Assembly: GCA_964513845.1 (NCBI GenBank)
Contig: CAZENT010000001.1
Coordinates: 42,450-106,449, forward strand
Direction: 5' to 3'
DNA from: an uncultured Pseudomonadales bacterium
GTDB taxonomy: Bacteria; Patescibacteriota; Microgenomatia; UBA1400; MFAQ01
DNA length: 64,000 nt
Of this stretch, positions 2,065-59,210 are shown piece by piece. The number at the start of each line of letters is the position of its first letter. The stretch's first letter is position 1. The notes beneath the pieces are model-generated. The model did not search any database and was not told where the DNA came from. It saw only the letters and a list, made by a program, of their open reading frames with translations. The translations under genes and the position numbers were made by a program.

Positions 2065-2370
2065 TTACTGTTTGGACTCCAATAAATTCTCTGCCAACGG
2101 TTCGATTATTTTTTCTAAGAGTTCTTGGTCTGAAAAAGTGGAAGCCAATGATTGGAGAATTGCGGTTCTTTGTTCTTCGTTGGTTTCTTCCCAAGGATTA
2201 AATTTTAGATGCTTTTCCAGTTCTGTAATTGAACTAACCGCCTTATGTTTTAGATCTACGTTTACGCATTTTACATCAGCGGCTCTCTCCTTTCCGATGT
2301 AGAGTAGGTCTTCTTTGTTAACCACGAGCACTTCATCTCCTAATTTTGCTACCGGGTATAGTTCGTTCAT
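2065..2370 (-). CDS. Small (~101 aa) conserved partner protein, paralog of 4969..5274; candidate immunity/antidote-like partner
   Basis: ORF-track 2065..2382 with likely true ATG at 2370 (MNELYPVAKLGDEVLVVNK...). It lies 1 nt after the stop of the upstream 373-aa gene and is ~65% identical to the 4969..5274 product. Confidence 0.6.
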   Translation of the reverse strand: MNELYPVAKLGDEVLVVNKEDLLYIGKERAADVKCVNVDLKHKAVSSITELEKHLKFNPWEETNEEQRTAILQSLASTFSDQELLEKIIEPLAENLLESKQ

Positions 2371-2371
2371 T

Positions 2372-3493: not shown

Positions 3494-3611
3494 TAATCTG
3501 CATGATGGTGGAGTAGAAGATGCAATTAAGTAATTGATGAGAAAAAGATAAGAAATCTATTATCACTGATGTAAATTCCTCAATATTTTTAAAATAAATT
3601 ATATTGCTATA

Positions 3612-6323: not shown

Positions 6324-6854
6324 TTAAAAGATGTCTTCGGGAGGGAGGAATTCTTCACCATTGGCAGCTTGAGGTTTGAACTCGGTTTTGAGCCAGAGAA
6401 CATAGTCGCAACCAGTGGCTTTCTTTTCTTCTCTATCCCAGCCAGAAGTCGAACATTTTTTCATTTTTTTACCGGCCGCGGTGGTGTAGAGAACTAGAGG
6501 TTCGCCACATTTGGGACATTTTTCGTCAAGCTTTTCGGTGGTTCCGTTGATCCATTCAACGTAGTCGCAACCTGTGGCCTTTTTGGCTTCTTTATCCCAA
6601 CCACCGGCACTACATTTCTTCATTTTTTTACCAAAACGTGTCACCTGAAGAACTAAAGGTTCGCCACATTTGGGACATTTTTCATCAAGAGTTTGTGGCT
6701 CAACCTCTAACCATTTGACATAGTCACAGCCATCGGTTTTGTGAGTTTCGGTGTTCCAGACACCCGTTGAACAGCGTCTAAGCTTTCGGCCGGTTGGGGT
6801 TTCGGTAATTTCTGATAGTGGTGCGCCACATTTGGGACATTTTTCTTCTTCCAT
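6324..6854 (-). CDS. Stand-alone protein of three tandem C4 zinc-ribbon repeats resembling topoisomerase-I C-terminal zinc ribbons
   Basis: Three ~57-aa repeats, each CPKCG(A/E)PL...GKKMKKCS..GW.....GCDYV.W. Confidence 0.65.
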   Translation of the reverse strand: MEEEKCPKCGAPLSEITETPTGRKLRRCSTGVWNTETHKTDGCDYVKWLEVEPQTLDEKCPKCGEPLVLQVTRFGKKMKKCSAGGWDKEAKKATGCDYVEWINGTTEKLDEKCPKCGEPLVLYTTAAGKKMKKCSTSGWDREEKKATGCDYVLWLKTEFKPQAANGEEFLPPEDIF

Positions 6855-6896
6855 GCTTATTAGATTAACACATCTTGGACAAGAAGACGAGATGAA

Positions 6897-11567: not shown

Positions 11568-13055
11568 CTAGGAAAGTTGATCTTGAATGACTTTCCTAAT
11601 CTCAATCTTGGCCTTGTGAGTTTTGACAAATCTCAACCAGTTTTTGTTTGGCTTTTTTATGTTTTTTGATTTTTGAACTTCGACAATATCACCACTCTTT
11701 AAAGGCTGATCTAGCGACGCAATGCGACCGTTTACTTTAACGGTTTGAATGTAATGACCTAGATCTGAGTGAACATTAAAAGCAAAGTCGACAGGGGTAG
11801 CGTTTTCTGGCAAGTCATAAACATCTCCGTTCGGAGAAAAAACATATATATGCTGAGACAGAGCGTCAAGTTTGTAATCTTCCAGGCTGTCACCTACCGA
11901 GCTTACCTGAGTTTGCCAACCGGCCAGCTGTTTGACCCAAGACATTTTGTCGGTTATTTTGAAAGCGGTACCTTCAGCCAGCTTTTCTTCAGAGGCACCG
12001 TGCATTTTGGCATCTGAGTACGCAAAATGTGCAGCGGCGCCGTACTCGGCAGTGAGATGCATATCATCTGAACGAATCTGAATTTCTACAATATTGCCCT
12101 TGTTATCAAAGATCTTGGTGTGAATAGATTGATAGCCGTTTGGTTTTGGCTGAGCAATAAAGTCGGAAATTCCTGCGTTGGGAACAGGTTTCCAGTATTG
12201 ATGGATTACACCGAGAGCAGAGTAACAGCTTGACGTGTCTTCGGTAATAACACGAACTGCCATGAGATCGTAAACTTTGGAAATATCACGACTGATCCCA
12301 GGACGAAGTAGTTTTTTGTATAAACTGTATTTTCTTTTGGGACGACCTTCGACCTTGGCGTTGACTCCGTGTTTGACTAACTGAAAACGAAGTTTGTTCA
12401 TGATTTCGGAAACGTTTTTTTCTGAGTGTTTGAAATGAGGCTTGGCAATTTCCTGAAGCCAGAGATATTCATCCGGGTAAATATAGGGGAAGGCTAGATC
12501 TTCCAGATCCCCCTTCAGTCGACCCATACCTAAGCGTTCTGCAAGAGGAGCGTAAACTTCCATAGTTTCGATGGCGATACGTTTTTGTTTGGATAAAGGA
12601 ACAGCGTCGAGAGTGGAAATGTTGTGAAATCTGTCGGCAAGACGAATAAGAACGACGCGAATATCTTGAGCCATGGCCACAAACATTTTTCGGAGATTTT
12701 CCAGAAACTCAACATTTTGGCTTCCTCTTAGTTTTACTTTGCCGACACGATTGACACCCTCAACAAGCTTCGCCACCTCCTCGCCAAACTGTTTCTGGAT
12801 TTCTTCAATGGGAATTTCGGACATTTCTGGAAGATCGTGAAGAAGAGCTGCTTCAAGACTGGGCTGATCAAGACCCCAGTCAGCGAGAATTGAGGATACC
12901 GAAATCGGATGAGTAATGTAATCCTCCCCTGTTTGACGAACTTGACCATCGTGTTTTTGGGCGGCAAAATCATAGACTTTTTGCAGTCTTTCTTCGTCGA
13001 TATCAGATCTTTTGGTTTTGGCTTGGATCAGTAGATCCTTGAAGCTTGTTGCCAT
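11568..13055 (-). CDS. rel: Short RelA/SpoT homolog (HD hydrolase + (p)ppGpp synthetase + TGS domain; no ACT)
   Basis: It has an HD motif (ALLHD), a synthetase region (RVKxxxSIxxK-like, YQSIHT) and a TGS-like C-terminus. Confidence 0.8.
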   Translation of the reverse strand: MATSFKDLLIQAKTKRSDIDEERLQKVYDFAAQKHDGQVRQTGEDYITHPISVSSILADWGLDQPSLEAALLHDLPEMSEIPIEEIQKQFGEEVAKLVEGVNRVGKVKLRGSQNVEFLENLRKMFVAMAQDIRVVLIRLADRFHNISTLDAVPLSKQKRIAIETMEVYAPLAERLGMGRLKGDLEDLAFPYIYPDEYLWLQEIAKPHFKHSEKNVSEIMNKLRFQLVKHGVNAKVEGRPKRKYSLYKKLLRPGISRDISKVYDLMAVRVITEDTSSCYSALGVIHQYWKPVPNAGISDFIAQPKPNGYQSIHTKIFDNKGNIVEIQIRSDDMHLTAEYGAAAHFAYSDAKMHGASEEKLAEGTAFKITDKMSWVKQLAGWQTQVSSVGDSLEDYKLDALSQHIYVFSPNGDVYDLPENATPVDFAFNVHSDLGHYIQTVKVNGRIASLDQPLKSGDIVEVQKSKNIKKPNKNWLRFVKTHKAKIEIRKVIQDQLS

Positions 13056-13094: not shown

Positions 13095-14558
13095 GTGTAT
13101 AGAAGGTTTTTATTACCAGACGAGGTTGCATTGCTCCCTAGTGAGCTGAAGCAAGTGATGAGCCTGTATATTGCTCGCGGTTTTGAGATCTATTTGGTGG
13201 GAGGAGGTGTACGAAATATCCTGATGGAGAAAGTCCCGGAGAACTGTGATTTAACGACAAATGCAACACCGGAAGAAAGTTTAGAAATTTTGAAAGAGCT
13301 TGATCCTTTTTATAACAATGATTTTGGAACTGTTTCTTATGAAATTGAAATAGATGGGAAGAAAGAACTATACGAAATCACAACCTATCGTTCGGAAAAA
13401 GAATACTCAGATTATCGCCGTCCCGACAATGTAAGCTGGGGAAAAACTTTGGAAGAAGATGTTACGCGTAGAGACTTCACCGTGGGCGCAATGGTAATCG
13501 GCCAAAAAGATGGAAAATATGAAATTATTGATCTGGTTGGCGGACTAGAAGACTTTGAAAAGGGTTTGATTAGAGCTGTCGGTAACCCCGAAAAACGTTT
13601 TGGAGAAGATGCTCTGAGAATGATGAGAGCCATAAGAATTGCAGCCAAACTTGGTTTTTCGATCGAAGAAGAAACTTTGAAAGCAATTTCAGTCAAGGCA
13701 CCATTGCTTGCCAATATCAGTAAAGAAAGAGTGCGCGATGAGCTAATGAAAATTATTGGGTCTGATTATCCAGCAGACGGAGTATCTCTATTGATATCGA
13801 CTGGTTTGATGGAACAAATAATTCCAGAAGTTTTGGAAGGCAGAGGTGTAATGCAGGGAGGACACCACACTCTGACTGTATTAGATCACATGTTGGAGTG
13901 TTTACGAAATAGTTCTTCACCCGATCCTGTTGTGCGTTTTGCCACTTTTATTCATGATGTGGGTAAACCAAGAAGTCAGAGATATAAGTGCCGAAAATGC
14001 GGAAAAATGTTCAGAGATCTGGCTGAAGAAATGACCACATGCGCCGATTGCGGATTTAATCAGCCGACCAGAGGAATGATTACTTTTTACGGACATGAAG
14101 TTATTGGAGCAAGACTAGCTAAAGAAATATGCGAAAGACTTCGGTTTACAAATAAACAGACTGAAAAAGTTGTGACCCTGGTGCGAATGCACATGTTTGC
14201 TTATCAGCCAGAAATGACAGATGCTGCTATTAGAAGAATCATAAGAAAAGTAGGCAAGGAAAATATCGCCGATATGGTTCTCTTGCGAATTGCCGATCGA
14301 AAAGGAAGCGGAAGTAACACGACAAGTTGGAGATTTATGGAGCTGCAAAAAAGAATTGGCGAACAATTGTTTGAACCAATGGAAATTAATGACATGGCAG
14401 TTGATGGACGAGATGTGATGGAGGTTTTAAATATTCAACCCGGACCTATCGTAGGAAAGGTTTTGAAAGAGTTGTTTGACGAAGTACTGGAGGATACGAG
14501 CAAAAATAACAAAGAATATCTACTTTCACGAATTAAAGAGGTTGAAAAATCCATATAG
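13095..14558 (+). CDS. cca: CCA-adding tRNA nucleotidyltransferase with HD domain and an inserted zinc ribbon
   Basis: GGGVRN...DCDLTTNATPEE is a polymerase-beta head motif. HDVGKP...FYGHE is the HD domain, interrupted by CRKCGKMFRDLAEEMTTCADCG. The true start may be an internal ATG near 13161. Confidence 0.8.
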   Translation: MYRRFLLPDEVALLPSELKQVMSLYIARGFEIYLVGGGVRNILMEKVPENCDLTTNATPEESLEILKELDPFYNNDFGTVSYEIEIDGKKELYEITTYRSEKEYSDYRRPDNVSWGKTLEEDVTRRDFTVGAMVIGQKDGKYEIIDLVGGLEDFEKGLIRAVGNPEKRFGEDALRMMRAIRIAAKLGFSIEEETLKAISVKAPLLANISKERVRDELMKIIGSDYPADGVSLLISTGLMEQIIPEVLEGRGVMQGGHHTLTVLDHMLECLRNSSSPDPVVRFATFIHDVGKPRSQRYKCRKCGKMFRDLAEEMTTCADCGFNQPTRGMITFYGHEVIGARLAKEICERLRFTNKQTEKVVTLVRMHMFAYQPEMTDAAIRRIIRKVGKENIADMVLLRIADRKGSGSNTTSWRFMELQKRIGEQLFEPMEINDMAVDGRDVMEVLNIQPGPIVGKVLKELFDEVLEDTSKNNKEYLLSRIKEVEKSI

Positions 14559-14583
14559 ATTCCGGGTCAGGCCCGGAATGACA
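14554..14583 (+). repeat. Short palindromic repeat element, family A, copy 1 (TATAGATTCCGGGTCAGGCCCGGAATGACA)
   Basis: The same ~30-bp hairpin element recurs at 22371, 22950, 49456 and 57045. Its TAG supplies the stop codon of cca. Confidence 0.8.
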
Positions 14584-15507: not shown

Positions 15508-16899
15508 TTATTTCGTGTTTATTTTTTTGATAGATTGCCGCGTCGGAGTACCTCCTCGCAATGACGCGGACGCGAGTGTTTTGCCTTTGTAAAAAAGACG
15601 AAGAAGGTTTCGAGTGACAACTAACCCGGTAAATAAAGAGATTAAAATACCGAGAATTAGAGTTAAGGCAAAACCGCGAACTGCCCCTGAAGTGTTGAGA
15701 AAGTTCCAATCAAGGGGATTGAAAAGAATAAAACCAGTAATAATGGTGGCTGTGTTGGCGTCTTTGATACTGTCCCAGGCTCTGCCAAAAGCTAGTTCGA
15801 GAGCCACTCGCCAATCCCTGCCCGCCCTTATTTCTTCTTTGTAGCGCTCAAAAACTAAAATGTTGGAGTCAACCGCCATGCCAACAGAAAGTAGGAAACC
15901 GGCAATTCCTGGCAGACTGAGAACGACAGGAATTAGCTTGTAAAGAACTAGGGTAAATAATCCATAAAGAACTAAGCCAACAGAAGCGATTACCCCCATC
16001 CATCCGTAGTTACCAATCATGAAAAGAATAACCATGGAGAGCCCAATGGCACCGGCGGTAACGCTTTTTTGAATTGAGTCGGCGCCTAGTGTAGCTGGTA
16101 TATTTTTCTGACTTAAAACACTTACCGGAACGGGAAGCGCACCGGCGTTTAGCTGAACCGCAAGAGCTTTGGCTTCGTCTGTAGTGAAACTGCCCGTGAT
16201 TTGGGCATTTCCATCAAGAATTTCGACTTGAACTGTGGGCATAGTGACTGGATAGTTGTCCAACAAAATGGCGATGGGTTTGCCGATATTCTCTTTGGTG
16301 AGTTTGGCGAACTTGGTTTTTCCGGCATCTTTGAAAGAGATTGAAACTGCGGGCTGACGATCTTCGGTTTCAAAAGTAACCTGGGCTCTAGCTAGATCAG
16401 CACCGGTGAGATCTGTGGGAGAAAAACCCGACAAGGTGGCTGCGTCCGTGGCAGTTTTGCCTTCGGTGTAAATAGGAAGAGCGAACTCCATTTTGGCTGT
16501 TTGACCAATAAGGTCAAGTGCTTGCTGGGGATCGGTGACTCCAGGAAGTTCAAGAATCAAGCGATAGTCGTTGCCAGAGACTGCTGTTTTGATTCCTGAT
16601 TCTGACACACCAAACAGATCAATACGTCTGGAAATAACTGTTTTAACCGATTCTAAGGCTGTTGCACGGTCTTCGGCCTTGATCTCTTGCATGTCGGCAG
16701 TAAGGGTAACTTGAAGGCCGCCCTTGATGTCGAGACCTTGCTTGAGCTCTATTTCTTTTGAGAGATCGAGATTGCCAATCTTGAAATTGATTCTGGGAAC
16801 TTGAAAATTAAATATCTTTGTTGGGAGTACAAGATATAGCGACATCAGAGTGATAATCGCGATAAAAATAAAAACTTTCTGTGGTTTTTTGAGAGTCAT
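15508..16899 (-). CDS. secD: Protein translocase subunit SecD (C-terminus extended by an in-frame repeat element)
   Basis: SecD periplasmic domain and TM segments are present. The last ~20 codons (ASASLRGGTPTRQSIKKINTK) are encoded by family B element copy 1. Confidence 0.85.
   Translation of the reverse strand: MTLKKPQKVFIFIAIITLMSLYLVLPTKIFNFQVPRINFKIGNLDLSKEIELKQGLDIKGGLQVTLTADMQEIKAEDRATALESVKTVISRRIDLFGVSESGIKTAVSGNDYRLILELPGVTDPQQALDLIGQTAKMEFALPIYTEGKTATDAATLSGFSPTDLTGADLARAQVTFETEDRQPAVSISFKDAGKTKFAKLTKENIGKPIAILLDNYPVTMPTVQVEILDGNAQITGSFTTDEAKALAVQLNAGALPVPVSVLSQKNIPATLGADSIQKSVTAGAIGLSMVILFMIGNYGWMGVIASVGLVLYGLFTLVLYKLIPVVLSLPGIAGFLLSVGMAVDSNILVFERYKEEIRAGRDWRVALELAFGRAWDSIKDANTATIITGFILFNPLDWNFLNTSGAVRGFALTLILGILISLFTGLVVTRNLLRLFYKGKTLASASLRGGTPTRQSIKKINTK
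15529..15576 (+). repeat. Short palindromic repeat element, family B, copy 1 (GATAGATTGCCGCGTCGGAGTACCTCCTCGCAATGACGCGGACGCGAG)
   Basis: It shares its AGATTGCC...CCTCGCAATGAC core with copies at 30552 and 42026. Confidence 0.75.
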
Positions 16900-20675: not shown

Positions 20676-20990
20676 ACACTCCCGGGTGCTGGTGAGGAAC
20701 GCCCTGCCGCAAGGCAGGGAGGAAAGTCCGGACAGCTAAAAGATAGGGTGACCAGGGAAACCTGGTTCTTCTCGAGGTGACTCGAGAGGCGCGATAGGGC
20801 CACAGAGACGAATAAAGGTGAAACGCTCTTGGTTACAAGAGATGGTTTAGAAGTAACTCTAAACTAGTGGTAACCCGCCCTGCTGCAATCGACGAATTGG
20901 GATTAAGGTATCTTTTCCGTCCCAGAAGTCTCGAGCATTAGATAGATGTTCCTCCTAGACAGAATCCGGCTTACTATGACCCGGGGGTCC
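20676..20990 (+). ncRNA. rnpB: RNase P RNA (bacterial type A, reduced length)
   Basis: Universally conserved P4 strands GGGAGGAAAGTCCGGAC (20717-20733) and ACAGAATCCGGCTTAC (20959-20974). P1 pairs cccgggt (20681-20687) with acccggg (20979-20985). An AGGTGAAACG...GGTTACAAGAG region resembles the J11/12-P12 region. Confidence 0.8.
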
Positions 20991-21995: not shown

Positions 21996-22991
21996 TTATT
22001 GGTATATTTTTTTCAATTGACTGATGAGGTTTGCTCTATCGGTACTTTTATCATACCAAACTATACCTGATTGTTTTTTAAACCAGACAGTTTGTCTTCG
22101 GGCGTAATCGACTTCAGAACGAGTCCAGGTTTCCACCAGCTCCTCATTGGAAACTTGACCTTCCAAGAAAGCAATTATTTGGGACACCCCCAGGCTAGTG
22201 TAAATGGGAAGGTTTCTGTTGGGATATTTGGTTAATAAATTTTTTACTTCGTCGATGGCACCATCGGCGATTCTATCCAAAACTCTTTTGTGGATTTGAT
22301 TTTTTATACTCTCTTTGTTGGGCATTATGCCAATCCAGTGAAATTGAGATTCTATTAGTGGGTTAATTTGAATAGATTCCCGATCAGGTCGGGAATGACA
22401 AGATTTTGTTATCGATGATGAGTTATTTAATGAGATTTCAATGGCGCGAATTAGCCGGCGAGGATTCATAAAATCCGAGTGATTAAGTGCTGCGAGTTTT
22501 TCTGGATTTTCTTTTTGAAGATAATCTTGAAGCTCTTTGGTGGTGAGCTTCTCTAGTTCTTTTCGCAATTCTTCGTTTGGTGGTACTAAAACATCCGAAA
22601 GATTTTGAGTAATGGCTTTTAAATACAAGCCTGTTCCCCCGACAATTATCAAGGGTGTTTTTGTGGCAATCGAGTCGTTGATTACTTTTTGAGAGTAACG
22701 ACAAAAATCTGCAAGATTTGCTCTTTCATCTGATCGAAAAATATCATGCCCAAATATTTTTATATTTTCGGGAAGGTTGAGCGGAATATCTTTCCCGGTG
22801 ATGATATCCAAATCTTGGTAAACTTGCCGTGAGTCAACCGATAAAATATTTGCTTTGGGCAGCTCTTTAGCTAAGTGAAGAGCAAGGCTAGTTTTGCCCG
22901 ATGCGGTTGGACCACAGATGACGACGATGTGATGATTGGAGTTAATTTGTATAGATTCCGGGTCAAGCCCGGAATGACATAGATATTTCAT
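21996..22991 (-). CDS. miaA: tRNA dimethylallyltransferase carrying two in-frame repeat-element insertions
   Basis: P-loop ICGPTASGKTSLAL and LSVDSRQVYQDLDIITGK match MiaA. Two ~13-aa insertions (CHSGLDPESIQIN at the N-terminus, CHSRPDRESIQIN mid-protein) coincide exactly with family A elements at 22950 and 22371. Confidence 0.8.
   Translation of the reverse strand: MKYLCHSGLDPESIQINSNHHIVVICGPTASGKTSLALHLAKELPKANILSVDSRQVYQDLDIITGKDIPLNLPENIKIFGHDIFRSDERANLADFCRYSQKVINDSIATKTPLIIVGGTGLYLKAITQNLSDVLVPPNEELRKELEKLTTKELQDYLQKENPEKLAALNHSDFMNPRRLIRAIEISLNNSSSITKSCHSRPDRESIQINPLIESQFHWIGIMPNKESIKNQIHKRVLDRIADGAIDEVKNLLTKYPNRNLPIYTSLGVSQIIAFLEGQVSNEELVETWTRSEVDYARRQTVWFKKQSGIVWYDKSTDRANLISQLKKIYQ
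22371..22400 (+). repeat. Short palindromic repeat element, family A, copy 2 (inside miaA, in frame)
   Basis: AATAGATTCCCGATCAGGTCGGGAATGACA. Confidence 0.8.
22950..22979 (+). repeat. Short palindromic repeat element, family A, copy 3 (inside the miaA 5' end, in frame)
   Basis: TATAGATTCCGGGTCAAGCCCGGAATGACA. Confidence 0.8.
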
Positions 22992-29579: not shown

Positions 29580-30908
29580 GTGGATAAATTACGAAAGTAT
29601 GTTTTTTTTGTTTTGTTTTTTTTGGCAGTAGTAATTTTTTTGATTCATTATTCGGTTTCCGGACAAGCTGTCTATGGGGATGGCATTGGCTATTATTCTC
29701 ACCTGCATAGCTGGGTGATTGACGGCGACTGGAACTATACCAATGAGTACAAACATATTTATGATTGGGAACATAATAATTTCGATACCGGAGTTGAGTC
29801 ATCTGCAATACAAATAGTTTCGACAACCAAAGAGGGGGAAGCGGAAAACTTTTATGGTACTGGAGTGGCGGTGTTACTTTTGCCTTTTTATTTGATGGCT
29901 CATTTTATTTCTATCTTGGCCAATCTTTTTGGGGCGGGAATTTCCGTACAGGGATATGGAGACGCGTATCAAATACTGACAGGAATTGGGGCTGTTTTTT
30001 ACGCAGTCTGGGGAGTGTATTTTCTGAATAAAATGATTGATATTGTTATCCGAGATAACAAAATTAGCTTAATAAGTAGTGTGACGATTTTCTTGTCAAC
30101 CAGCTTGCTTTATTATGGTAGTTTTGACGTAATTAATTCTCACTTTGCTTCTTTCTTTTTGACCGTGGTTTTCTTTTATTTATTTTTTTCGAGAAAAAAC
30201 AATCTGCTTTTGGGGTTGGTGGCCGGACTTATCACATTAAATAGAGTTCAAGACTCTGTAGTGATATTGATTTGGCTTATCGATTTTTTACGAAATAAAA
30301 GGCCATTAATTACTGCAAAAAACTTCTTGATCGGATATGTTTTTGCTTTAATTCCGCTTTTCTTTCATTGGGGTAGTGTGATTGGAAATCCACTCAATCA
30401 TCCATATTTGCGAGGGCTTACTGAGAAAATTCAAGGTGGACAAAGCACTGACATTTTTGGAAGTCTGTTTAATCCAGTTACCGGATTGTTTTTTCGGACT
30501 CCCCTACTTTTGGTTTTGTTCTTGTATTTTTTGTGTTTAATTGTTAATTATTATAGATTGCCACGTCACTTCGCTCCTCGCAATGACAAGATTTATTTTG
30601 TATATCCATTTATATTCTTTTTAATGCAGTTTGTGATTATTACTCTTCAAGGCGGATGGGCGGCAGCTGCTTATGGAGGAAGAATGTATATTTCTTCTTT
30701 GGTGTTTTTTGGATTAGTGTTGGGAAAAATGCTCACCTGGATGAGTAAAAAAAATCATAGATTGGTCTATGTTTTTGTGATGACATTTATAGTAATAAAC
30801 TTTGTTTCTATGGCGATATTTATTTTGAGAGATAAGGGGGCAGAGGGTGGATCTCATGGCACTGAACAGAGAACAATCCAAAGACTTAATAAAATATTCC
30901 GAAAATAA
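29580..30908 (+). CDS. Polytopic membrane protein, GT-C (ArnT/PMT-like) glycosyltransferase-like, with an in-frame family B repeat insertion
   Basis: About 12 TM helices. The first periplasmic loop contains YGDGIGYY, DE/DG-x-YY-like. The peptide YRLPRHFAPRNDK is encoded by the element at 30552. Confidence 0.45.
   Translation: MDKLRKYVFFVLFFLAVVIFLIHYSVSGQAVYGDGIGYYSHLHSWVIDGDWNYTNEYKHIYDWEHNNFDTGVESSAIQIVSTTKEGEAENFYGTGVAVLLLPFYLMAHFISILANLFGAGISVQGYGDAYQILTGIGAVFYAVWGVYFLNKMIDIVIRDNKISLISSVTIFLSTSLLYYGSFDVINSHFASFFLTVVFFYLFFSRKNNLLLGLVAGLITLNRVQDSVVILIWLIDFLRNKRPLITAKNFLIGYVFALIPLFFHWGSVIGNPLNHPYLRGLTEKIQGGQSTDIFGSLFNPVTGLFFRTPLLLVLFLYFLCLIVNYYRLPRHFAPRNDKIYFVYPFIFFLMQFVIITLQGGWAAAAYGGRMYISSLVFFGLVLGKMLTWMSKKNHRLVYVFVMTFIVINFVSMAIFILRDKGAEGGSHGTEQRTIQRLNKIFRK
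30552..30588 (+). repeat. Short palindromic repeat element, family B, copy 2 (in frame within 29580..30908)
   Basis: TATAGATTGCCACGTCACTTCGCTCCTCGCAATGACA. Confidence 0.75.
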
Positions 30909-41432: not shown

Positions 41433-41999
41433 CTATTTTACGCCTGAATTGAGCCGAGTGCAGATTTCTTGAAAAATGGTGTCGATGTCGGGACGGCCAT
41501 CAATTTCAAGAAGCTTGCCCTGAGAACGGTAATGTTCTATAATCGGAATCGTTTTTTGGGTGTATGTATCGAGCCTTTCTTTGATTGCTTCGGGTGTGTC
41601 GTCGGTGCGACCTTCGAGAACTGCACGTTTAGCCAGCCTCTCTAAACTAACTTCTCGAGGAATATCCAAGAGAATTACTTTATCTATGTTCGTTTTTAAT
41701 TCCTTAAGAAAGTAGTCAAGATACTCTGCTTGACTGATTTCCCTGGGGGTGCCGTCTATTATGAAACCGGTTCGGGAATTTCTAAGGGCTGGCTCAAGTA
41801 CATCGAGAACTGTCTCGAAAGGCATAAGTTCACCCGATTGGAGAATTTTAGCGATGATTTTGCCCTTGGGAGATCCACTCTCAGCTTCCGCACGAAGCAA
41901 AGCCCCGCTAGATATATGAGTGAGATTATATTTTTCTGCCAATAATTTGGCTTGAGTACCTTTTCCAGATCCTTGGGGACCTAAAATAATTAAATTCAT
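41433..41999 (-). CDS. adk: Adenylate kinase
   Basis: P-loop ILGPQGSGKGTQA and LID region. Confidence 0.9.
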   Translation of the reverse strand: MNLIILGPQGSGKGTQAKLLAEKYNLTHISSGALLRAEAESGSPKGKIIAKILQSGELMPFETVLDVLEPALRNSRTGFIIDGTPREISQAEYLDYFLKELKTNIDKVILLDIPREVSLERLAKRAVLEGRTDDTPEAIKERLDTYTQKTIPIIEHYRSQGKLLEIDGRPDIDTIFQEICTRLNSGVK

Positions 42000-42025
42000 A
42001 GCTTTATTCTATATCAGTATTGTGT

Positions 42026-42059
42026 GAGATTGCCGCGTCACTTCGTTCCTCGCAATGAC
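42026..42059 (+). repeat. Short palindromic repeat element, family B, copy 3 (adk-secY intergenic)
   Basis: GAGATTGCCGCGTCACTTCGTTCCTCGCAATGAC. Confidence 0.75.
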
Positions 42060-42064
42060 GATAT

Positions 42065-43351
42065 TTAATCCAAGAACTTGTCGTAACTATACATGTAGAG
42101 CTGAGAGTTGATGGTTTTGAGAATTTCCAGAACTACGGAAACGACGATCAACACACTGGTTCCACCGATGGCTAGAGAAGCAATGCCGGTGAAGCCGGAC
42201 ATAATCGAGGGAAGAATGGCAACTAGCCCTAAGAAACTGGCACCAACGAGGGTAATACGACCCAAGACAAAGTTTAGATAGTTGACCGTATCGGGACCCG
42301 GCCTAATACCGGGGATAAACGATCCAGATGAGCGAAGATCTTTAGCAATTTTTTCGGGATTAAAAACGACGGCGGTGTAAAAGTAAGAGAAAGCCACAAC
42401 CAAAACAAAGTAGAGGACATTATAAAGAACTGAGCTGGGAGCGAGCCAAGTACTTAACGTGGTGGCAAAACCGGCAAGAGTAGGCTGATTAACGCCAGCC
42501 AGAACTCGACTCAGCATACTAGGAATGAGCATAAAAGAAACAGCAAAGATGATTGGGATGACACCGGCCTGATTTAAACGAAGAGGTAGATGACTGCTGG
42601 CAACCGCACTGTAGGAGGCTCCCCCGCCACGTCTGGCTGACTGGATGGGAATTTCGCGAATAGCCTCACCAACTCTGACAATGGCATAAATGGCGGCGAC
42701 GACAAAAAATAAGAAGATTAAGTAGGTAAATATCTTGGATTGATCCATGGTGGTAATGGTTTGGATGATGTTGATAGGAATACGAGTGACGATACCAACA
42801 AAAATGATAAGACTAATGCCGTTGCCTAAACCATAATCGTTTAGCTGCTCACCAAGCCAGATAAGAAGTGAGGTACCGGCGGCGAGAGTAAAGACGATGG
42901 AAGCTAGCTGTAAGGGATCGGCCGTGGTAGTGAGGCCTTGTTTTTGAAGAAGGAAAATAAGGGCAATGCCTTGTAGGAAACAAAGAGGAATGGTAAGAAG
43001 GCGGGTGTATTGATTGATCTTTTGGCGACCATAATCCCCTTCTTTTTGGAGAGCTTCGAGCTTGGGAATAACCATACCGAGCATTTGGAAAATAATGGAG
43101 GCGTTGATGTAGGGGTTTAAACCAAGAGCCATAATGGAAAAGTTTCCCAAGGTACCGCCGGAAAAAACATCGAGAAGAGAAAGAAAGGCTGAGGAATTGA
43201 ACATTTCCTTAAGAGCGGAAAGGTTGATACCCGGAGCCGGGACATGAGCAACTAGACGGAAAATGGCAATAACAACAGCAGTAAAAATCAAACGCTTGCG
43301 AAGTTCTTTGATTTTCAACAAGGCGCGCAGAGGGGCTAATAAATTATTCAT
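42065..43351 (-). CDS. secY: Preprotein translocase subunit SecY
   Basis: 428 aa, 10 TM helices, with conserved SecY motifs (GGTSVLI, RPG...YL). Confidence 0.9.
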   Translation of the reverse strand: MNNLLAPLRALLKIKELRKRLIFTAVVIAIFRLVAHVPAPGINLSALKEMFNSSAFLSLLDVFSGGTLGNFSIMALGLNPYINASIIFQMLGMVIPKLEALQKEGDYGRQKINQYTRLLTIPLCFLQGIALIFLLQKQGLTTTADPLQLASIVFTLAAGTSLLIWLGEQLNDYGLGNGISLIIFVGIVTRIPINIIQTITTMDQSKIFTYLIFLFFVVAAIYAIVRVGEAIREIPIQSARRGGGASYSAVASSHLPLRLNQAGVIPIIFAVSFMLIPSMLSRVLAGVNQPTLAGFATTLSTWLAPSSVLYNVLYFVLVVAFSYFYTAVVFNPEKIAKDLRSSGSFIPGIRPGPDTVNYLNFVLGRITLVGASFLGLVAILPSIMSGFTGIASLAIGGTSVLIVVSVVLEILKTINSQLYMYSYDKFLD

Positions 43352-49455: not shown

Positions 49456-49485
49456 TATAGGTTCCCGATCAGGTCGGGAATGACA
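49456..49485 (+). repeat. Short palindromic repeat element, family A, copy 4 (rpsC-rplP intergenic)
   Basis: TATAGGTTCCCGATCAGGTCGGGAATGACA. Confidence 0.8.
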
Positions 49486-54898: not shown

Positions 54899-57022
54899 TT
54901 ATTGTGCCGGATTTTTCAATAACTTTGCGGCAATACTGTTTGGAAGTTCCTGATAATGACTTGGTTCCATGTAGTAACTTGCACGTCCAGCAGTGAGTGA
55001 ACGGATAGCTGTAGCATAAGCGGAGAGCTCGGAAAGTGGAACTGTAGCTGTAATAACACGAGCATTTCCACGCTGAGCAGTGCCACCAATTTGTGCGCGT
55101 CTGGCAGAAAGATCGCCGATGATGTCACCCATGTTACCTTCTGGGGTGGTGACTTCGACTTTCATAATTGGCTCGAGAATAACAGCTCCGGCTTGCTTGA
55201 CAGCGTCCTGAAGAGCCATTGATCCGGCAATTTTGAAGGACATTTCGGAAGAGTCAACTTCGTGAAAACTACCATCAACGACGGCAACATCAAGGTCGAC
55301 CATGGGGAAACCGGCTATAAGACCGTTGTCGAGAGCTTCACGAACACCTTTTTCGATAGGATTAATGAATTCGCGTGGGATGGTACCTCCAACAATTTTG
55401 TTGGTGAAAGTAAAGCCTTCACCGCGAGGTTTAGGTGTAATAACGAGAATGGCGTGTCCGTATTGACCACGTCCACCTGATTGACGAATATATTTTCCTT
55501 CTCCGCGGGCTTCTTTGGTGATGGTTTCGCGATAGGCAACTTGAGGAGCACCTGTGGTTGCATCGACTTTGAACTCACGACGAAGACGGTCAACGAGAAT
55601 TTCCAAGTGAAGCTCTCCCATACCAGCGATAACGGTTTGGCCGGTTTCGTGGTTGGTTTTGATTTTAAAGGTAGGATCTTCTTCAGCGAGACGGCCTAGA
55701 GCGATATCAAGCTTTTCTTGATCAGCTTTGGTTTTTGGTTCAATGGCTAGAGAGATAACCGGATCTGGGAAGTCGATTGATTCAAGAACGATGGGTTTGT
55801 TTTCATCACAAAGGGTATCTCCTGTTTTGGTAGCTTTGAGTCCAACAACACCGACAATTTCGCCCGCTTTGGCTTCCTGAATTTCTTCTCTGGTATTGGC
55901 ATGCATAAGCATCAAACGACCAAGACGTTCACGCTCAGACTTACTGGCATTAAAAACGTAGGAACCGGCTTGAATTTTGCCAGAGTAAAGACGAACGTAA
56001 GTGACTTTTCCAACATGAGGATCGGCTTGAATTTTGAAGGCTAGTCCCACAAAAGCTTCGTTGATATCGGGTTTTCTAGTTTCAACTTCGCCAGTTTTGA
56101 GATTGGTTCCGGCAGTGTCGGCAATGTCTAAGGGAGAAGGAAGGAAGTCGACGACAGCATCGAGAAGAGGCTGAACACCTTTGTTGCGAAGACAAGAGCC
56201 AGGGAAAACAGGAACGATTTCATTAGCAATGGTGGCTTTTCTGAGAGCGGTTTTGAGATCAGACATGGATGGTTCTTCACCGTTCAAATATTTTTCCATG
56301 AGGGCCTCGTCTGTTTCGACAATTGATTCGATCAGTTTGCCTCTTTCGCTTTCGCAATCAGCTTCCATATCGGCAGGAAAACCGGCGGTAATATCGTATT
56401 TGGCACCGGTTTCATCACCTTGCCAAATAATGGTTTTTTTCTCGAGGAGCATGGCAATTCCCTTGAAAGTATTTTCGACTCCAATGGGAAGAGCTAGAAT
56501 AGCGGTTTTAGCACCGAGTTTTTCATGAACATCTTTGATTGTTCCCATAAAGTCTGCACCAAGAACGTCCATTTTATTTACCAAGGCAATACGAGGAACT
56601 TTGTATTTGTCAGCTTGGCGCCAGACAGTTTCGGTTTGGGACTGAACGCCGGAACCGGCATCAAGAACAATAATACCGCCGTCGAGAACGCGAAGAGAGC
56701 GTTCGACTTCGGCCGTAAAGTCTACGTGACCGGGAGTATCGATAACATTAAAACGACATTCGTCTTTGATGTTGGCATCTTCGAGAACTGGGGTCCAAAA
56801 AGTGGTGGTAGCCGCGGAAACAATAGTTATACCGCGTTCGCGCTCTTGATCCATCCAGTCCATCTGGGTGTCGCCTTCATCAATATCACCGATTTTATAA
56901 GTTTTACCGGTGTAAAAAAGGATACGTTCGGTGGTGGTGGTTTTACCGGCATCAATATGAGCGATAATGCCAATGTTTCTAACACGTTCTAGTGGTATTT
57001 GTTTTGAGACGCCTGCGGCCAT
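54899..57022 (-). CDS. fusA: Elongation factor G
   Basis: AHIDAGKTTTTE, DTPGHVDF and NKMD motifs. 707 aa. Confidence 0.95.
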   Translation of the reverse strand: MAAGVSKQIPLERVRNIGIIAHIDAGKTTTTERILFYTGKTYKIGDIDEGDTQMDWMDQERERGITIVSAATTTFWTPVLEDANIKDECRFNVIDTPGHVDFTAEVERSLRVLDGGIIVLDAGSGVQSQTETVWRQADKYKVPRIALVNKMDVLGADFMGTIKDVHEKLGAKTAILALPIGVENTFKGIAMLLEKKTIIWQGDETGAKYDITAGFPADMEADCESERGKLIESIVETDEALMEKYLNGEEPSMSDLKTALRKATIANEIVPVFPGSCLRNKGVQPLLDAVVDFLPSPLDIADTAGTNLKTGEVETRKPDINEAFVGLAFKIQADPHVGKVTYVRLYSGKIQAGSYVFNASKSERERLGRLMLMHANTREEIQEAKAGEIVGVVGLKATKTGDTLCDENKPIVLESIDFPDPVISLAIEPKTKADQEKLDIALGRLAEEDPTFKIKTNHETGQTVIAGMGELHLEILVDRLRREFKVDATTGAPQVAYRETITKEARGEGKYIRQSGGRGQYGHAILVITPKPRGEGFTFTNKIVGGTIPREFINPIEKGVREALDNGLIAGFPMVDLDVAVVDGSFHEVDSSEMSFKIAGSMALQDAVKQAGAVILEPIMKVEVTTPEGNMGDIIGDLSARRAQIGGTAQRGNARVITATVPLSELSAYATAIRSLTAGRASYYMEPSHYQELPNSIAAKLLKNPAQ

Positions 57023-57044: not shown

Positions 57045-57073
57045 TATAGTTTCCCGCTTTCGCGGGAATGACA
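57045..57073 (+). repeat. Short palindromic repeat element, family A, copy 5 (helicase-fusA intergenic)
   Basis: TATAGTTTCCCGCTTTCGCGGGAATGACA. Confidence 0.8.
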
Positions 57074-57146: not shown

Positions 57147-59210
57147 TTATGGGTGGGTGTGGTGTCGGTGATTGCGACGGTCGTTTTTGTTAAGATTTTT
57201 TCGATGTTCTTTGTGATCTTTTGGTTTCGCTGCAAAAAGCTCTGGAGCATATTCTTTGAGCCACTCGATTTTAGCCTCAAAACAGTTACAGGCGTAGGCA
57301 TTTCCTTGAGGATTGACAAAAATTTCATTGGCAATAATGTAAGAACCTTTTGGGGGAATGTCTGAGGCTAGTACGGAGCCAGGATGAATCGAGATATCCC
57401 CTTTGGTGCCATCTACTTTGTGAAAATTATTTCTGCCTGTGTTTTTCAACAAATTGCCAATTAATCCGGAGGTGATAGCCTTGCCAATAGCGGTTTTATT
57501 GATCTTAGGTATTGTTTCCGGATCGATAAAGATATCGTGACTGTCAAGAACATCTAAGAGATCGAGGCGAACATTTTTGGCCTCTTCGAGGGCTTTTTCG
57601 TTGAGAAAATTATTTTTGGCCCAATCTGGGTTGTAGCCGCTGGCCGCATACGCTTTCCAAACATTTAAATAGACGAAAAAATCTGATTCTGCACCCTGAA
57701 CAAACGAAGCATGTGCGTTTTCAGCAACATACTCGAACTCTCTTTCTTGCGGTTTTACAAAGATGTTTTTGCCATCAAGGAAAGAGGCAATGATAGTAAT
57801 TTCATTTAAGCAGTCAATTTCCGGCCTCATGGCCTCAAGAAGCATTCGACCTAGGCGAGGCTCAATCCCCAACTCAACAAGCCACTCCCCAATTTCGGTA
57901 ATGTTTCCTTCGTCATCAATGGCGCCAAGAGTGGTAAGGGTTTTGATGGCTTGAGCGATGGCCTTTTCGCCGGGATGATCTAAGAAATCGAAATCCAATA
58001 TATTCTGAATGCCGAATTTCTTCATGGTCAACACAACTTGGGACAGGTCGGAACGCTGGATTTCCGGAGTTTGGAACTGAGGACGTCTTCTGAGACTGCT
58101 TTCGGTGAAAAGTCGGTAACAGTACCCTGGGGCGGTTCGCCCTGATCTTCCCTTGCGCTGATCGATACCGCTGATGGCGTGTTCGGTAAGGACAAGCTGT
58201 TCGATACCACTTCTGGGATCAAATTGGGTTTGTTTGATGTATCCAGAGTCTATGACGTGAATAATACCGTCGATCGTAATTGAGGTTTCAGCGATATTGG
58301 TAGCAACGATAATTTTTCTTTTTTTGGAGGGCAAGAAAATCTTGTCTTGTTCGTCTGGGGCCATTTCGGCGTGTAATGGGAAAATATCAACTGTTTGAGG
58401 ATTAATTCGGGCTTCGATTTTGGCAATGGTGTTTGATATTTCCTTTTTTCCAGGCATAAAAATGAGAATGTCACCATCAAGATCATTGTCGATAATGGCT
58501 TTGACTTTTTCGGCGGCACCCTGAGTAAAATCGTAGTAAACAGGCGTTTCCTTTTCATAAAAAACCTCTACGGGAAACATTTTCCCCGGTATTTCGACCA
58601 AGTTTTCTTTGTCTCCCTCGCCAATGTACTCGGCAAATCGATTCCTCTCGATGGTGGCTGAGGTAACAACAATGCGAATTGTTTCAATCCCGGCTTGAAT
58701 ACGAGCCTGATTGGCACTCTTTAGAAGTCCCAGACAAAGGTCGATGTTTAAACTTCGCTCGTGGGCTTCATCGATCATAACAATGGAGTACTCGGACAAA
58801 AGAGGGTCAAACTGGATTTTTCTCAGTAAAATGCCGTCCGTCATAAAAGTAATGTCTGTCTTTTTGGAGGTGATGTCTTCGAAACGAATGTGATAACCAA
58901 CCCTTTCCCCCACCTCACACTGCATCATGTCTGAGACACGACTAGTCATGCTTTTGGTGACAATTCTTCTTGGTTGAGTTACAGCGATGCCACCCTTGAG
59001 ATGAAGCTCATTTCTTAGCTCAAGCAAGAGAGGTGGCAAGCAGGATGTTTTTCCAGATCCGGTTTCGCCAACCAGAACAAAGTATGGGTGAAGCCTAATT
59101 TCATCGCGCAAAAACTCTCTCAAATATGCCACAGGAATCTGATCCAGATTTTCTAGAGCATACTCAGAAGAACGATTGTACCGACTGCTTTCAATTGATT
59201 TTGAGGCCAT
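57147..59210 (-). CDS. DEAH-box ATP-dependent RNA helicase (HrpA/HrpB-like) inserted in the str operon
   Basis: Motifs I GETGSGKT, II DEAH, III SAT, V TNIAETSITI and VI QRKGRSGR are present. 687 aa. Confidence 0.8.
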   Translation of the reverse strand: MASKSIESSRYNRSSEYALENLDQIPVAYLREFLRDEIRLHPYFVLVGETGSGKTSCLPPLLLELRNELHLKGGIAVTQPRRIVTKSMTSRVSDMMQCEVGERVGYHIRFEDITSKKTDITFMTDGILLRKIQFDPLLSEYSIVMIDEAHERSLNIDLCLGLLKSANQARIQAGIETIRIVVTSATIERNRFAEYIGEGDKENLVEIPGKMFPVEVFYEKETPVYYDFTQGAAEKVKAIIDNDLDGDILIFMPGKKEISNTIAKIEARINPQTVDIFPLHAEMAPDEQDKIFLPSKKRKIIVATNIAETSITIDGIIHVIDSGYIKQTQFDPRSGIEQLVLTEHAISGIDQRKGRSGRTAPGYCYRLFTESSLRRRPQFQTPEIQRSDLSQVVLTMKKFGIQNILDFDFLDHPGEKAIAQAIKTLTTLGAIDDEGNITEIGEWLVELGIEPRLGRMLLEAMRPEIDCLNEITIIASFLDGKNIFVKPQEREFEYVAENAHASFVQGAESDFFVYLNVWKAYAASGYNPDWAKNNFLNEKALEEAKNVRLDLLDVLDSHDIFIDPETIPKINKTAIGKAITSGLIGNLLKNTGRNNFHKVDGTKGDISIHPGSVLASDIPPKGSYIIANEIFVNPQGNAYACNCFEAKIEWLKEYAPELFAAKPKDHKEHRKNLNKNDRRNHRHHTHP

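Follow-up and report, generated by a model that had tools for sequence, protein, structure and literature searches.

What kind of sequence lies, within one 64-kb stretch of DNA from a tiny, Collierbacteria-like bacterium of the candidate phyla (the window, which is the whole stretch analyzed here), in-frame in the 3' tail of secD, inside the gene for a membrane protein and again between secY and adk? The initial annotation had grouped these three copies as a repeat family, family B, and the copies are real: a scan of the window with the motif AGATTGCCRCGTC-N(4-30)-CCTCGCAATGAC returned three exact matches, all on the + strand, at 15532-15565, 30555-30587 and 42027-42059, whereas 0 matches were expected by chance in 100 dinucleotide shuffles. 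The three copies and the genes around them are the following.

15532..15573, minus strand: family B copy 1, subtype B2, in-frame in the 3' tail of secD; the element proper spans 15532-15565.
30555..30587, minus strand: family B copy 2, B1-like, 33 nt, antisense inside the plus-strand gene 29580..30908.
42027..42059, minus strand: family B copy 3, B1, 33 nt, intergenic between secY and adk.
15508..16899, minus strand: secD (PF21760, PF22599, PF02355), host of copy 1.
29580..30908, plus strand: gene for a 442-aa polytopic membrane protein with no Pfam hit, host of copy 2.
41433..43351, minus strand: adk (41433..41999) and secY (42065..43351), assigned by Pfam, flanking copy 3.

Read on the minus strand, the segment inserted at copy 1 is GCGTCCGC-GTCATTGCGAGGAGGTACTCCGACGCGGCAATCT, which encodes ASASLRGGTPTRQS, and copies 2 and 3 are GTCATTGCGAGGAGCGAAGTGACGTGGCAATCT and GTCATTGCGAGGAACGAAGTGACGCGGCAATCT, respectively. 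The cores differ, being GGAGTACCTCC in copy 1 and ACTTCGYTCC in copies 2 and 3. The placement of copy 3 between adk and secY is borne out, with Pfam confirming both genes; the copy sits 5 nt past the secY stop and 27 nt ahead of the adk start.

Comparison with orthologs shows that two of the three family B copies are true in-frame insertions. The peptides and frames had been read correctly, as SecD ends in ...KTLASASLRGGTPTRQSIKKINTK* and the product of 29580..30908 contains YRLPRHFAPRNDK, and in both cases the inserted segment is missing from the orthologs. Among orthologs with 85-92% identity, SecD is 446-448 aa long with the C-terminus ...KTLEIKKxK, and SecD of the window ends in ...KTL[ASASLRGGTPTRQS]IKKINTK, with about 14 extra residues in its C-terminal tail. 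Because the native C-terminal residues are retained after this internal insertion, the earlier claim of a novel C-terminal tail holds for the insertion but not for a wholly new tail. At the DNA level the secD site is empty in a 92%-identical ortholog (L001) and occupied in L002, where the 34-nt sequence of copy 1 recurs; the L156 version differs by 1 nt. The 442-aa membrane protein has gained 11 residues, RLPRHFAPRND, in a loop between hydrophobic segments, with the start of the copy coinciding with a codon boundary, and this peptide is absent from the orthologs. The label "glycosyltransferase-like" given to this protein is weak, since PF13231 was found in distant homologs and the protein itself has no Pfam hit.

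In-frame, translated segments are also what would be seen if the shared sequence were a motif conserved at the protein level, with no inserted DNA element behind it. However, the same DNA is used in different frames and on different strands, giving SLRGGTPTRQS in SecD and RLPRHFAPRND in the membrane protein and remaining untranslated between secY and adk, and in MiaA orthologs an element at one same site is read in two different frames. Together with the segments missing from orthologs, this leaves selection on a peptide with practically no probability, and we regard it as refuted by the ortholog alignments.

On the strand that carries GTCATT, family B consists of GTC, a basal stem ATTGC...GCAAT of 5 bp, an internal loop GA / GYG and an apical mini-hairpin of variable, free sequence, with an overall length of 27-59 nt; as single-stranded DNA, the B-type repeat reads GTCATTGCGAGG...GGCAATCT. 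The description of family B as palindromic is thus right for the basal stem, while the whole is an interrupted hairpin with an internal loop and not a plain palindrome. Folding of single family B copies, as RNA and as DNA, gave z-scores of -1.6 to +1.5, no better than shuffles. Because single-copy folds are uninformative, we turned to covariation among copies to deduce the structure. In a neutral frame, GTCATT-NN...NN-AATCY, the two dinucleotides are complementary in 371 of 430 matches, the pairs being GC/GC, CC/GG, CT/AG, TC/GA and TT/AA, and the predicted folds of 205 distinct B cores are more stable than those of shuffled sequences (-3.3 vs -1.5 kcal/mol).

Five further copies with a related frame lie in the window, four of family A and one that resembles the NTS repeats of Neisseria.

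14557..14582, minus strand: family A copy GTCATTCCGGGCCTGACCCGGAATCT, between the convergent gene for the CCA-adding enzyme (13095..14558, plus strand) and secF.
22374..22399, minus strand: family A copy, in-frame inside miaA, encoding CHSRPDRES.
22953..22978, minus strand: family A copy at the 5' end of miaA, encoding CHSGLDPES.
49459..49484, minus strand: family A copy filling the rpsC-rplP spacer.
57046..57073, minus strand: near-canonical NTS-type copy TGTCATTCCCGCGAAAGCGGGAAACTAT, between a DEAH helicase gene and fusA.

The first of these overlaps the stop codon of the plus-strand CCA-adding enzyme gene. The family A copies have the same TATAGATT...AATGACA ends as family B, as had been noticed from the window alone; the eighth copy at 57046-57073 and the link to the Ssn-related hairpin class are both additional to that annotation. 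An oriented frame, GTCATT-stem...stem-AATCT, is common to families A and B and the 57046-57073 copy, and in the form GTCATT...AA(T/C/A)CT it is kept in all eight window copies (three B, four A and the 57046 copy). Family A folds as a clean 8-9-bp hairpin and shares a CC/GG basal stem with the 57046 copy. Family A and the 57046 copy appear to be the same kind of element as family B, with CC/GG in the basal stem.

Among the literature found by searching with the repeat sequences, only one report was relevant. It describes the NTS/SRM hairpin repeats, which are bound and cut as single-stranded DNA by Ssn GIY-YIG nucleases (Chenal et al., Nat Commun 2025, PMC11893778), with binding and cleavage by the cognate nuclease in one orientation only (PMC11893778). 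In the Neisseria NTS, GTC is needed for cleavage and the C 3' of the stem is the base most critical for binding (PMC11893778). Both features recur here: GTC lies directly 5' of the stem in the three B, four A and 57046 copies, and a cytosine lies directly 3' of the palindrome, as GCAAT-C-T in all B copies and as GGAAT-C or GGAAC-C / GGAAA-C in the A and NTS-like copies. Like the NTS/SRM repeats, those of the window are oriented, high-copy, dispersed hairpins; the frame of family B is identical to that of the Neisseria NTS CGTCATTCCCGCGMAVGCGGGAATCYRG, and the 57046-57073 copy nearly matches the NTS itself. Family B is unlike NTS/SRM in its GC/GC basal stem, its conserved GA/GYG internal loop and its free-sequence apical hairpin. 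The published degenerate SRM pattern, HGTCWYN(0-2)YYVSBRHN(0-5)WNVSBRGN(0-2)RNCYNB (PMC11893778), matches none of the three B and none of the four A copies, the only matching site in the window being 57046-57073. Since this pattern was built by hand from 29 genomes (PMC11893778), failing it argues for a new variant and not for exclusion from the class.

All eight window copies lie in one orientation, with GTCATT on the minus strand. In Collierbacteria-like DNA, the GTCATT strand is the locally C-rich strand in 66 of 74 copies (22 loci vs 1), and the rule holds in 16 of the 20 copies whose host gene is on the other strand; in a pan-bacterial sample the strand bias is absent (85:71). Copy orientation thus tracks the C-rich chromosome strand better than it tracks gene direction. 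This bears on a role at the RNA level, in which the copies would be terminators, mRNA-stabilizing or processing hairpins or translational couplers and their spread would reflect selection for that role. A gene-orientation census found 76 of 104 copies sense to the nearest gene, and many copies fall exactly at intra-operon junctions, as such a role would have it. Yet copies also lie in coding regions and antisense to them (copy 2), the DNA strand outpredicts gene direction, and family B RNA, as noted above, folds no better than shuffles. A gathering-threshold Rfam scan of the window found RNase P RNA only, with no match at the repeats; terminator and promoter scans at the copies revealed no T-tract and no terminator consensus, and the site of copy 3 has no terminator or promoter consensus, so that the repeats correspond neither to intrinsic terminators nor to a known RNA family. 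We consider an RNA-level role very unlikely.

Is there an enzyme that goes with these repeats? The exact B frame occurs in at least 120 genome stretches from more than 15 phyla, and this, together with identical copies at other Collierbacteria-like sites, shows that the element is not limited to the three loci first described. Starting from the repeats, we ran jackhmmer with a GIY-YIG profile over all ORFs of 124 loci (L001-L124) and the window. GIY-YIG ORFs were present in only four loci (L016, L027, L081 and L100), and in each a B copy is found at a distance of 10-90 nt from the ORF, with an inverted B copy downstream; the three intact proteins scanned (L016, L081 and L100) match PF01541 with E about 1e-16. 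Starting from the gene, six loci were picked by protein similarity only (L166, L167, L169, L175, L176 and L177), and in every one the GIY-YIG gene has such a repeat on either side. A single-domain GIY-YIG gene of ~97 aa therefore lies between inverted repeats at 10 loci, all outside the window, in several phyla including CPR. Nine of them have family B-type ends (L016, L027, L081, L100, L166, L167, L169, L175 and L176) and one has family A ends (L177). In L016 (Oscillospiraceae), the nuclease gene is immediately preceded by a copy identical to window copy 2 in all but 1 of 33 nt, and the repeat just upstream of the gene in L177 matches the window family A copy at 22953..22978 in 25 of 26 nt.

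The flanked nucleases have one PF01541 domain, are 96-98 aa long and show a catalytic Tyr-Tyr spacing of 11, with a Glu about 58-59 residues past the first Tyr, to be compared with Y6/Y17/E64 in SsnA (PMC11893778); these features lend indirect support to a place in the Ssn clade (CDD cd10448). The family comprises 2,467 clusters at 50% identity (E<=1e-10), and intact members of 97-98 aa are held by Patescibacteria. NCBIfam gives these nucleases no family name, and a PDB sequence search with them returned only a weak match, UPF0213 BH0048 (E=0.007). The 64-kb window has no GIY-YIG ORF by regular expression or jackhmmer, and no Ssn-type nuclease gene was found in the ~375 kb of window plus Collierbacteria-like DNA, which is about one third of one genome-equivalent. 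The sole hmmsearch match in the ~325 kb of Collierbacteria-like loci, a GIY-YIG protein in L158, was rejected as the cognate enzyme; it is UPF0213/YhbQ-like and has no flanking repeats.

The repeats thus flank GIY-YIG genes in many phyla. The arrangement is that of NTS/SRM repeats, which likewise flank a ~95-aa single-domain GIY-YIG gene on both sides, inverted, across phyla. By its gene content and ends, the full element would be an IS-like cassette made of a ~97-aa GIY-YIG gene between two inverted repeats, and family B appears to be a second, widely distributed repeat architecture bracketing the same kind of GIY-YIG genes. The earlier suggestion that one kind of mobile element gave rise to both families gains support, as A and B each flank genes of one GIY-YIG nuclease family in inverted orientation. 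Because the repeats flank GIY-YIG genes and one such copy is 1 nt in 33 away from copy 2, the window copies are best read as solo ends. We therefore think it likely that family B is an oriented hairpin repeat of the NTS/SRM class and that its copies in the window are nuclease-less solo ends of GIY-YIG cassettes.

The cassettes also bear on whether the repeats could be REP/BIME- or IS200/IS605-type sequences mobilized by an HUH tyrosine (Y1/RAYT) transposase. Short hairpins, tandem mosaics at gene junctions and a chromosome-strand orientation bias are hallmarks of elements transposed as single-stranded DNA, and the repeats here have all of them; as in the REP/BIME-RAYT and IS200/IS605 systems, the small hairpins would be recognized in single-stranded DNA, and the enzyme gene lies between its own sites. 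A parallel between Ssn repeats and such elements was drawn in the discussion of PMC11893778. But those systems use an HUH Y1 transposase, whereas the bracketed gene here is GIY-YIG in 10 of 10 loci (scanned with GIY-YIG profiles only), and the 5' motif is GTC rather than the GTAG/CTAC of REPs; REPs are extragenic, whereas the repeats here lack GTAG beside the stem and also occur inside genes. Mobilization by a Y1 enzyme is in our judgment highly improbable.

The copies are insertions relative to orthologs, at sites that are polymorphic and re-used. They accumulate at gene junctions (secD-secF, rpsC-rplP and miaB-miaA), and the insertion polymorphism that the first reading of the repeats called for is seen at two of these, with empty and filled sites and swaps between families: depending on the relative, secD-secF has no copy, a B copy, an A copy or three copies, and rpsC-rplP is empty (L150 and L143), A-occupied or B-occupied (a family B variant in L129). 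An extra 149-aa gene adjoins the element in L129. Comparison of empty with filled sites at secD and rpsC-rplP revealed no target-site duplication. The 3' side of secY in L129 carries the same element as copy 3, and 33-nt copies identical to copy 3 are found at other sites in three Collierbacteria-like metagenome contigs (L128, L133 and L139).

These patterns weigh on a less active history, in which the copies came from the ends of ssn cassettes, the nuclease was lost in the lineage and what remains are neutral, drifting, inactive remnants with no function. Such decay would fit the ~375 kb without an Ssn-type gene and the 19% of repeat-rich genomes without an SsnA homolog (PMC11893778), and it would fit the secY-side copy: a relative whose SecY is 89% identical still has it, which makes some copies, at the least, old. 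On the other hand, identical 33-nt copies at different sites in different metagenomes, empty sites in 92%-identical orthologs, different families at the same junction and the strong orientation bias suggest continuing turnover or selection, and the DNA sampled for the gene was only ~1/3 of a genome-equivalent. We see inert remnants as possible but unlikely.

Other known repeats resemble these in part. Neisseria dRS3 shares an ATTCC(C)...(G)GGAAT core and forms tandem intergenic mosaics beside variable gene content, but its definition, ATTCCC-N8-GGGAAT, fits neither family B (ATTGC...GCAAT) nor the 57046 copy, which with ATTCCC-N8-GGGAAA has one mismatch; unlike dRS3, family B has a different stem, a longer core, a CPR host and copies inside genes. 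The palindromic elements of Rickettsia (RPE) also go in-frame into housekeeping genes that are unrelated to one another, giving the proteins additional peptide segments (PMC10969869), and the insertion behavior here is similar. RPE, however, are about 100-150 bp with a conserved peptide in one frame, whereas the elements here are 26-42 nt, give peptides that vary with frame and strand and are tied to a GIY-YIG cassette. Classical MITEs (Correia, ERIC) are likewise non-autonomous, dispersed and sometimes intragenic, but they measure 50-500 bp, have terminal inverted repeats and are inserted by DDE transposases that duplicate the target site, in contrast to a single 26-42-nt hairpin with no duplication at secD or rpsC-rplP. 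CRISPR repeats, DNA uptake sequences and attC sites were dropped from consideration, because an oriented hairpin flanks a nuclease gene here, with no array, spacer structure or integrase context.

If the copies are solo ends of GIY-YIG cassettes, they would be the targets of a cognate nuclease of the Ssn type, which either has its gene in another part of the genome or was once present; this enzyme would bind the GTCATT strand when it is single-stranded and nick just 5' of it. Spread would take place during a single-stranded stage, for example replication or recombination, and intragenic copies would survive only if the frame were kept (33 or 42 nt, open in most frames), the survivors falling in tolerant loops or tails.

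For annotation, the many odd peptides such as "...SLRG...", "...FAPRND..." and "...CHSGLDPES..." in predicted proteins, as well as the N-terminal extensions of GIY-YIG proteins, are translated repeats. The 2025 description of the Ssn/NTS system drew mostly on Neisseria and other Pseudomonadati (PMC11893778) and makes no mention of CPR/Patescibacteria, of in-frame insertions in genes or of a replication-strand bias. The present data add evidence that the repeats act as insertions, in-frame in essential genes of CPR bacteria with ~1-Mb genomes, and that their orientation follows the chromosome strand, as a single-strand-specific enzyme would predict, which makes the mechanism testable. Because the published search motif misses family B, the repeat numbers reported so far are probably too low for the system as a whole.

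More tentatively, both families may represent the non-autonomous ends of a mobile, IS-like cassette found across bacteria, with an Ssn-type GIY-YIG single-strand nuclease as its sole gene. To our knowledge, GIY-YIG enzymes have no known transposition mechanism. Such a cassette would be a class of transposable element with an enzyme not known as a transposase. It would move while DNA is single-stranded during replication, and the strict orientation by chromosome strand would follow from this. Family B would then be a distinct, unrecognized specificity group (GC/GC stem, GA/GYG loop, free apical hairpin), and in CPR bacteria the element would have colonized operon junctions and the tolerant loops of essential genes.

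The motif AGATTGCCRCGTC-N-CCTCGCAATGAC matches the window three times, each time on the + strand, and was not found once in 100 dinucleotide-preserving shuffles of the window. The three family B copies and the host genes that the initial annotation had named for them were borne out by this match, the shuffles, the reading frames, and Pfam. The core of copy 1 is unlike the cores of copies 2 and 3. The repeats of the window, including the shorter family A with the same ends, are as follows.

15532-15565 (+): family B copy 1, in secD (15508..16899, -), whose product has the C-terminus ...KTLASASLRGGTPTRQSIKKINTK
30555-30587 (+): family B copy 2, in the gene of a 442-aa polytopic membrane protein (29580..30908, +), whose product includes YRLPRHFAPRNDK
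42027-42059 (+): family B copy 3, in the spacer between secY and adk, both with Pfam support
14557-14582, 22374-22399, 22953-22978, and 49459-49484: the four family A copies, TATAGATTCCSRR...YSGGAATGACA
57046-57073 (-): TGTCATTCCCGCGAAAGCGGGAAACTAT, between a DEAH/HrpA-like helicase gene (57147..59210) and fusA (54899..57022)

The host is a CPR bacterium (Microgenomates), and the nearest named SecD proteins are those of Candidatus Woesebacteria and Collierbacteria, with 81-83% identity. SecD orthologs with 85-92% identity are 446-448 aa long and end in ...KTLEIKKxK. The window SecD has approximately 14 additional residues between KTL and IKK, so that the new SecD tail claimed in the initial annotation holds as an addition near the C-terminus, but the native end is retained. 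In the DNA comparison, secD of locus L001, encoding a 92%-identical ortholog, is an empty site, whereas L002 carries the same B2-subtype element as copy 1 at the same position. At this site, L003 has three distinct tandem elements (B1, an NTS-like copy, and family A), and in L125 the secD junction is occupied by family A. Copy 2 is 33 nt long with its first base on a codon boundary of the membrane protein gene; orthologs with 62-73% identity do not have the 11-residue segment RLPRHFAPRND, which is present in a 96%-identical protein. Both ortholog alignments thus lack the inserted segments, and relatives with empty and filled sites exist, as the initial annotation had anticipated for a mobile element. 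The element 3' of secY is also kept in L129, a relative with a SecY identity of 89%. No target-site duplication was visible at any site compared. In the corresponding L129 region (12169-12660, against window 41999-42064), an additional 149-aa gene separates this element from adk, where the window has only a 27-nt spacer; a gene was gained or lost immediately beside the element.

The junctions are re-used by different elements across relatives. At rpsC-rplP, L150 and L143 have no element, the window has a family A copy, and L129 has a B variant; the miaB-miaA junction has one element in the window versus three in L003. The fold of family A is a clean hairpin of 8-9 bp that shows compensatory changes from copy to copy. 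Window miaA (21996-22991) contains two in-frame family A insertions: 22953-22978 encodes the N-terminal CHSGLDPESIQIN, and 22374-22399 encodes CHSRPDRESIQIN in the interior of the protein. In L003 miaA (2070-3077), an element occupies the same internal loop in another reading frame (VIPGLTRNP), and a separate 27-aa insertion consists of a family A element plus a nested insert.

Single family B copies fold, as RNA or DNA, no better than shuffles. Covariation was examined with a neutral frame, GTCATT-NN...NN-AATCY, matched in 1.17 Mb. The dinucleotides are complementary in 371 of 430 matches (chance, 1/16) and include CT/AG, TC/GA, and TT/AA, none of which was selected for by the pattern. The B cores (205 distinct) share the layout GA-(free-sequence hairpin)-GYG and fold more stably than shuffles (-3.3 versus -1.5 kcal/mol). 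The core commonest across phyla includes GCGNAGC, and d(GCGNAGC) is a DNA mini-hairpin of very high stability; the core of copy 3 has the compensated ACGAAGT. Because of the complementary dinucleotides and the folding of the cores, family B is predicted to be an interrupted hairpin, in which an internal loop separates a basal stem from a variable apical stem. The term palindromic thus fits family B only in part, since it is not a plain palindrome.

A full-text literature search with the repeat strings led us to the work of Chenal et al. 2025 (PMC11893778) on the Neisseria NTS, CGTCATTCCCGCGMAVGCGGGAATCYRG, and its generalised form, the Ssn-related motif (SRM). The 94-aa, single-domain GIY-YIG nuclease SsnA binds the hairpin in single-stranded DNA alone and in only one orientation, cutting a few nucleotides upstream; cleavage depends most on GTC 5' of the stem and binding most on the C directly 3' of it, and ssn genes typically have their own repeats on the flanks (PMC11893778). 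The common termini of families A and B, GTCATT...AATCT (- strand), are exactly the mapped NTS positions. Both families fail the published degenerate motif. That motif has a single match in the window, the near-canonical Neisseria-type NTS at 57046-57073, an eighth element overlooked in the initial annotation. It is also unusual for a helicase gene to lie here, shortly upstream of fusA. Family B appears to belong to the Ssn-related hairpin repeats, as a previously unrecognised architectural variant missed by the published motif.

The link to nucleases was approached from both sides. A scan for GTCATTGCGAGG-N(8-24)-GGCAATCT, with each species represented by a single genome, gave at least 120 stretches, with more than 15 phyla, several CPR groups included, among the matches listed. 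Family B is thus not confined to three loci, and the interpretation in the initial annotation is supported overall by insertions, polymorphic sites, and this spread. When all ORFs of the window and of the comparison loci L001-L124 were searched with jackhmmer, GIY-YIG ORFs turned up in just four loci (L081, Phycisphaerae; L016, Oscillospiraceae; L100; and L027, Falkowbacteria), all four with a sense B copy 10-90 nt upstream of the gene and an inverted B copy downstream. The three intact proteins scanned match Pfam PF01541 with E about 1e-16; the L027 gene is broken by an insertion of ~185 nt (about 2660-2850), which has its own terminal inverted repeats, GAGATGGTTACAAAACTATTT...AAATAGTTTTGTAACCATCTC, and looks like a different, MITE-like element. 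Conversely, six loci picked by protein similarity alone (L166, L167, and L169, Patescibacteria; L175 and L176, IMG/VR contigs; and L177) all have repeats on both sides. The CPR cassettes, with the layout GTCATTGCGAGG-core-GCAATCTCTGGT ... ssn ... ACCAGAGATTGC-core-CTCGCAATGAC, lie between housekeeping genes, e.g. pheS and pheT. The L177 flanks are family A, the upstream copy being identical to window 22953-22978 at 25 of 26 nt, and only 1 of 33 nt separates window copy 2 from the copy that precedes ssn in L016. The flanked nucleases agree with SsnA in length, single domain, and catalytic-residue spacing, and the family comprises 2,467 clusters (50% identity, E<=1e-10).

The window and the sampled relatives yielded no Ssn-type gene. 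The sole GIY-YIG gene among these relatives, at 3934-4194 (-) of L158, from a 791-kb Collierbacteria-like contig, encodes an 82-aa UPF0213/YhbQ-like protein and has no flanking repeats. Many predicted members of the nuclease family, among P0362-P0501, carry N-terminal extensions of 20-75 aa that are translated upstream repeats (e.g. SLRGTK..., VIARALARSNL, HPERSRRIS, LCHSGLDPES), so that gene calling errs systematically here. Additional repeat families, with stems of other sequence, are suggested by HPERSRRIS and VILSEVEGS.

When metagenomes were scanned with a family A pattern specific to the lineage, 41 Collierbacteria-like loci were obtained. Together with the window they hold about 100 elements in about 375 kb, a density inflated because loci were picked for having a copy; the permissive element pattern also lets in a few chance matches. 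The window has 8 genuine copies in 64 kb, and in all 8 GTCATT is on the - strand. GC skew at third codon positions follows the chromosome strand, not gene direction, with coding-strand values of +0.17 for + strand genes and -0.40 for - strand genes. In the Collierbacteria-like loci, GTCATT lies on the locally C-rich strand in 66 of 74 copies (by locus, 22 versus 1, with 3 ties), and still does so in 16 of 20 copies with the host gene on the opposite strand. Sense orientation to the gene (76/104 copies) is a weaker bias, and a mixed pan-bacterial sample had no strand bias (85:71). The orientation fits an enzyme or selection acting on one strand while it is single-stranded.

Over its whole length, the window has positive GC skew on the + strand, yet the - (C-rich) strand carries most of its genes, among them the operons of ribosomal proteins and the gene of the large RNA polymerase subunit. 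The C-rich strand holds 72% of coding sequence in the related loci L125-L165, which is at odds with the G-rich leading strand that is the rule elsewhere; either these genes are located on the lagging strand or the lineage has an unusual skew polarity.

Within ORFs there are also two arrays of long direct repeats in tandem, with a period of 156-162 nt. The array at 3595-4051 has three copies, and that at 6388-6856 has two to three, with a repeated GGTTCGCCACATTTGGGACATTTTTC segment; both probably encode repeated protein modules. The sole Rfam match in the window is a bacterial class A RNase P RNA at 20681-20989 (+), with 105 bits against a gathering threshold of 100.

What the repeats of this CPR bacterium add to the published record is their in-frame spread into essential genes, their re-use of insertion hot spots, and their strand rule.
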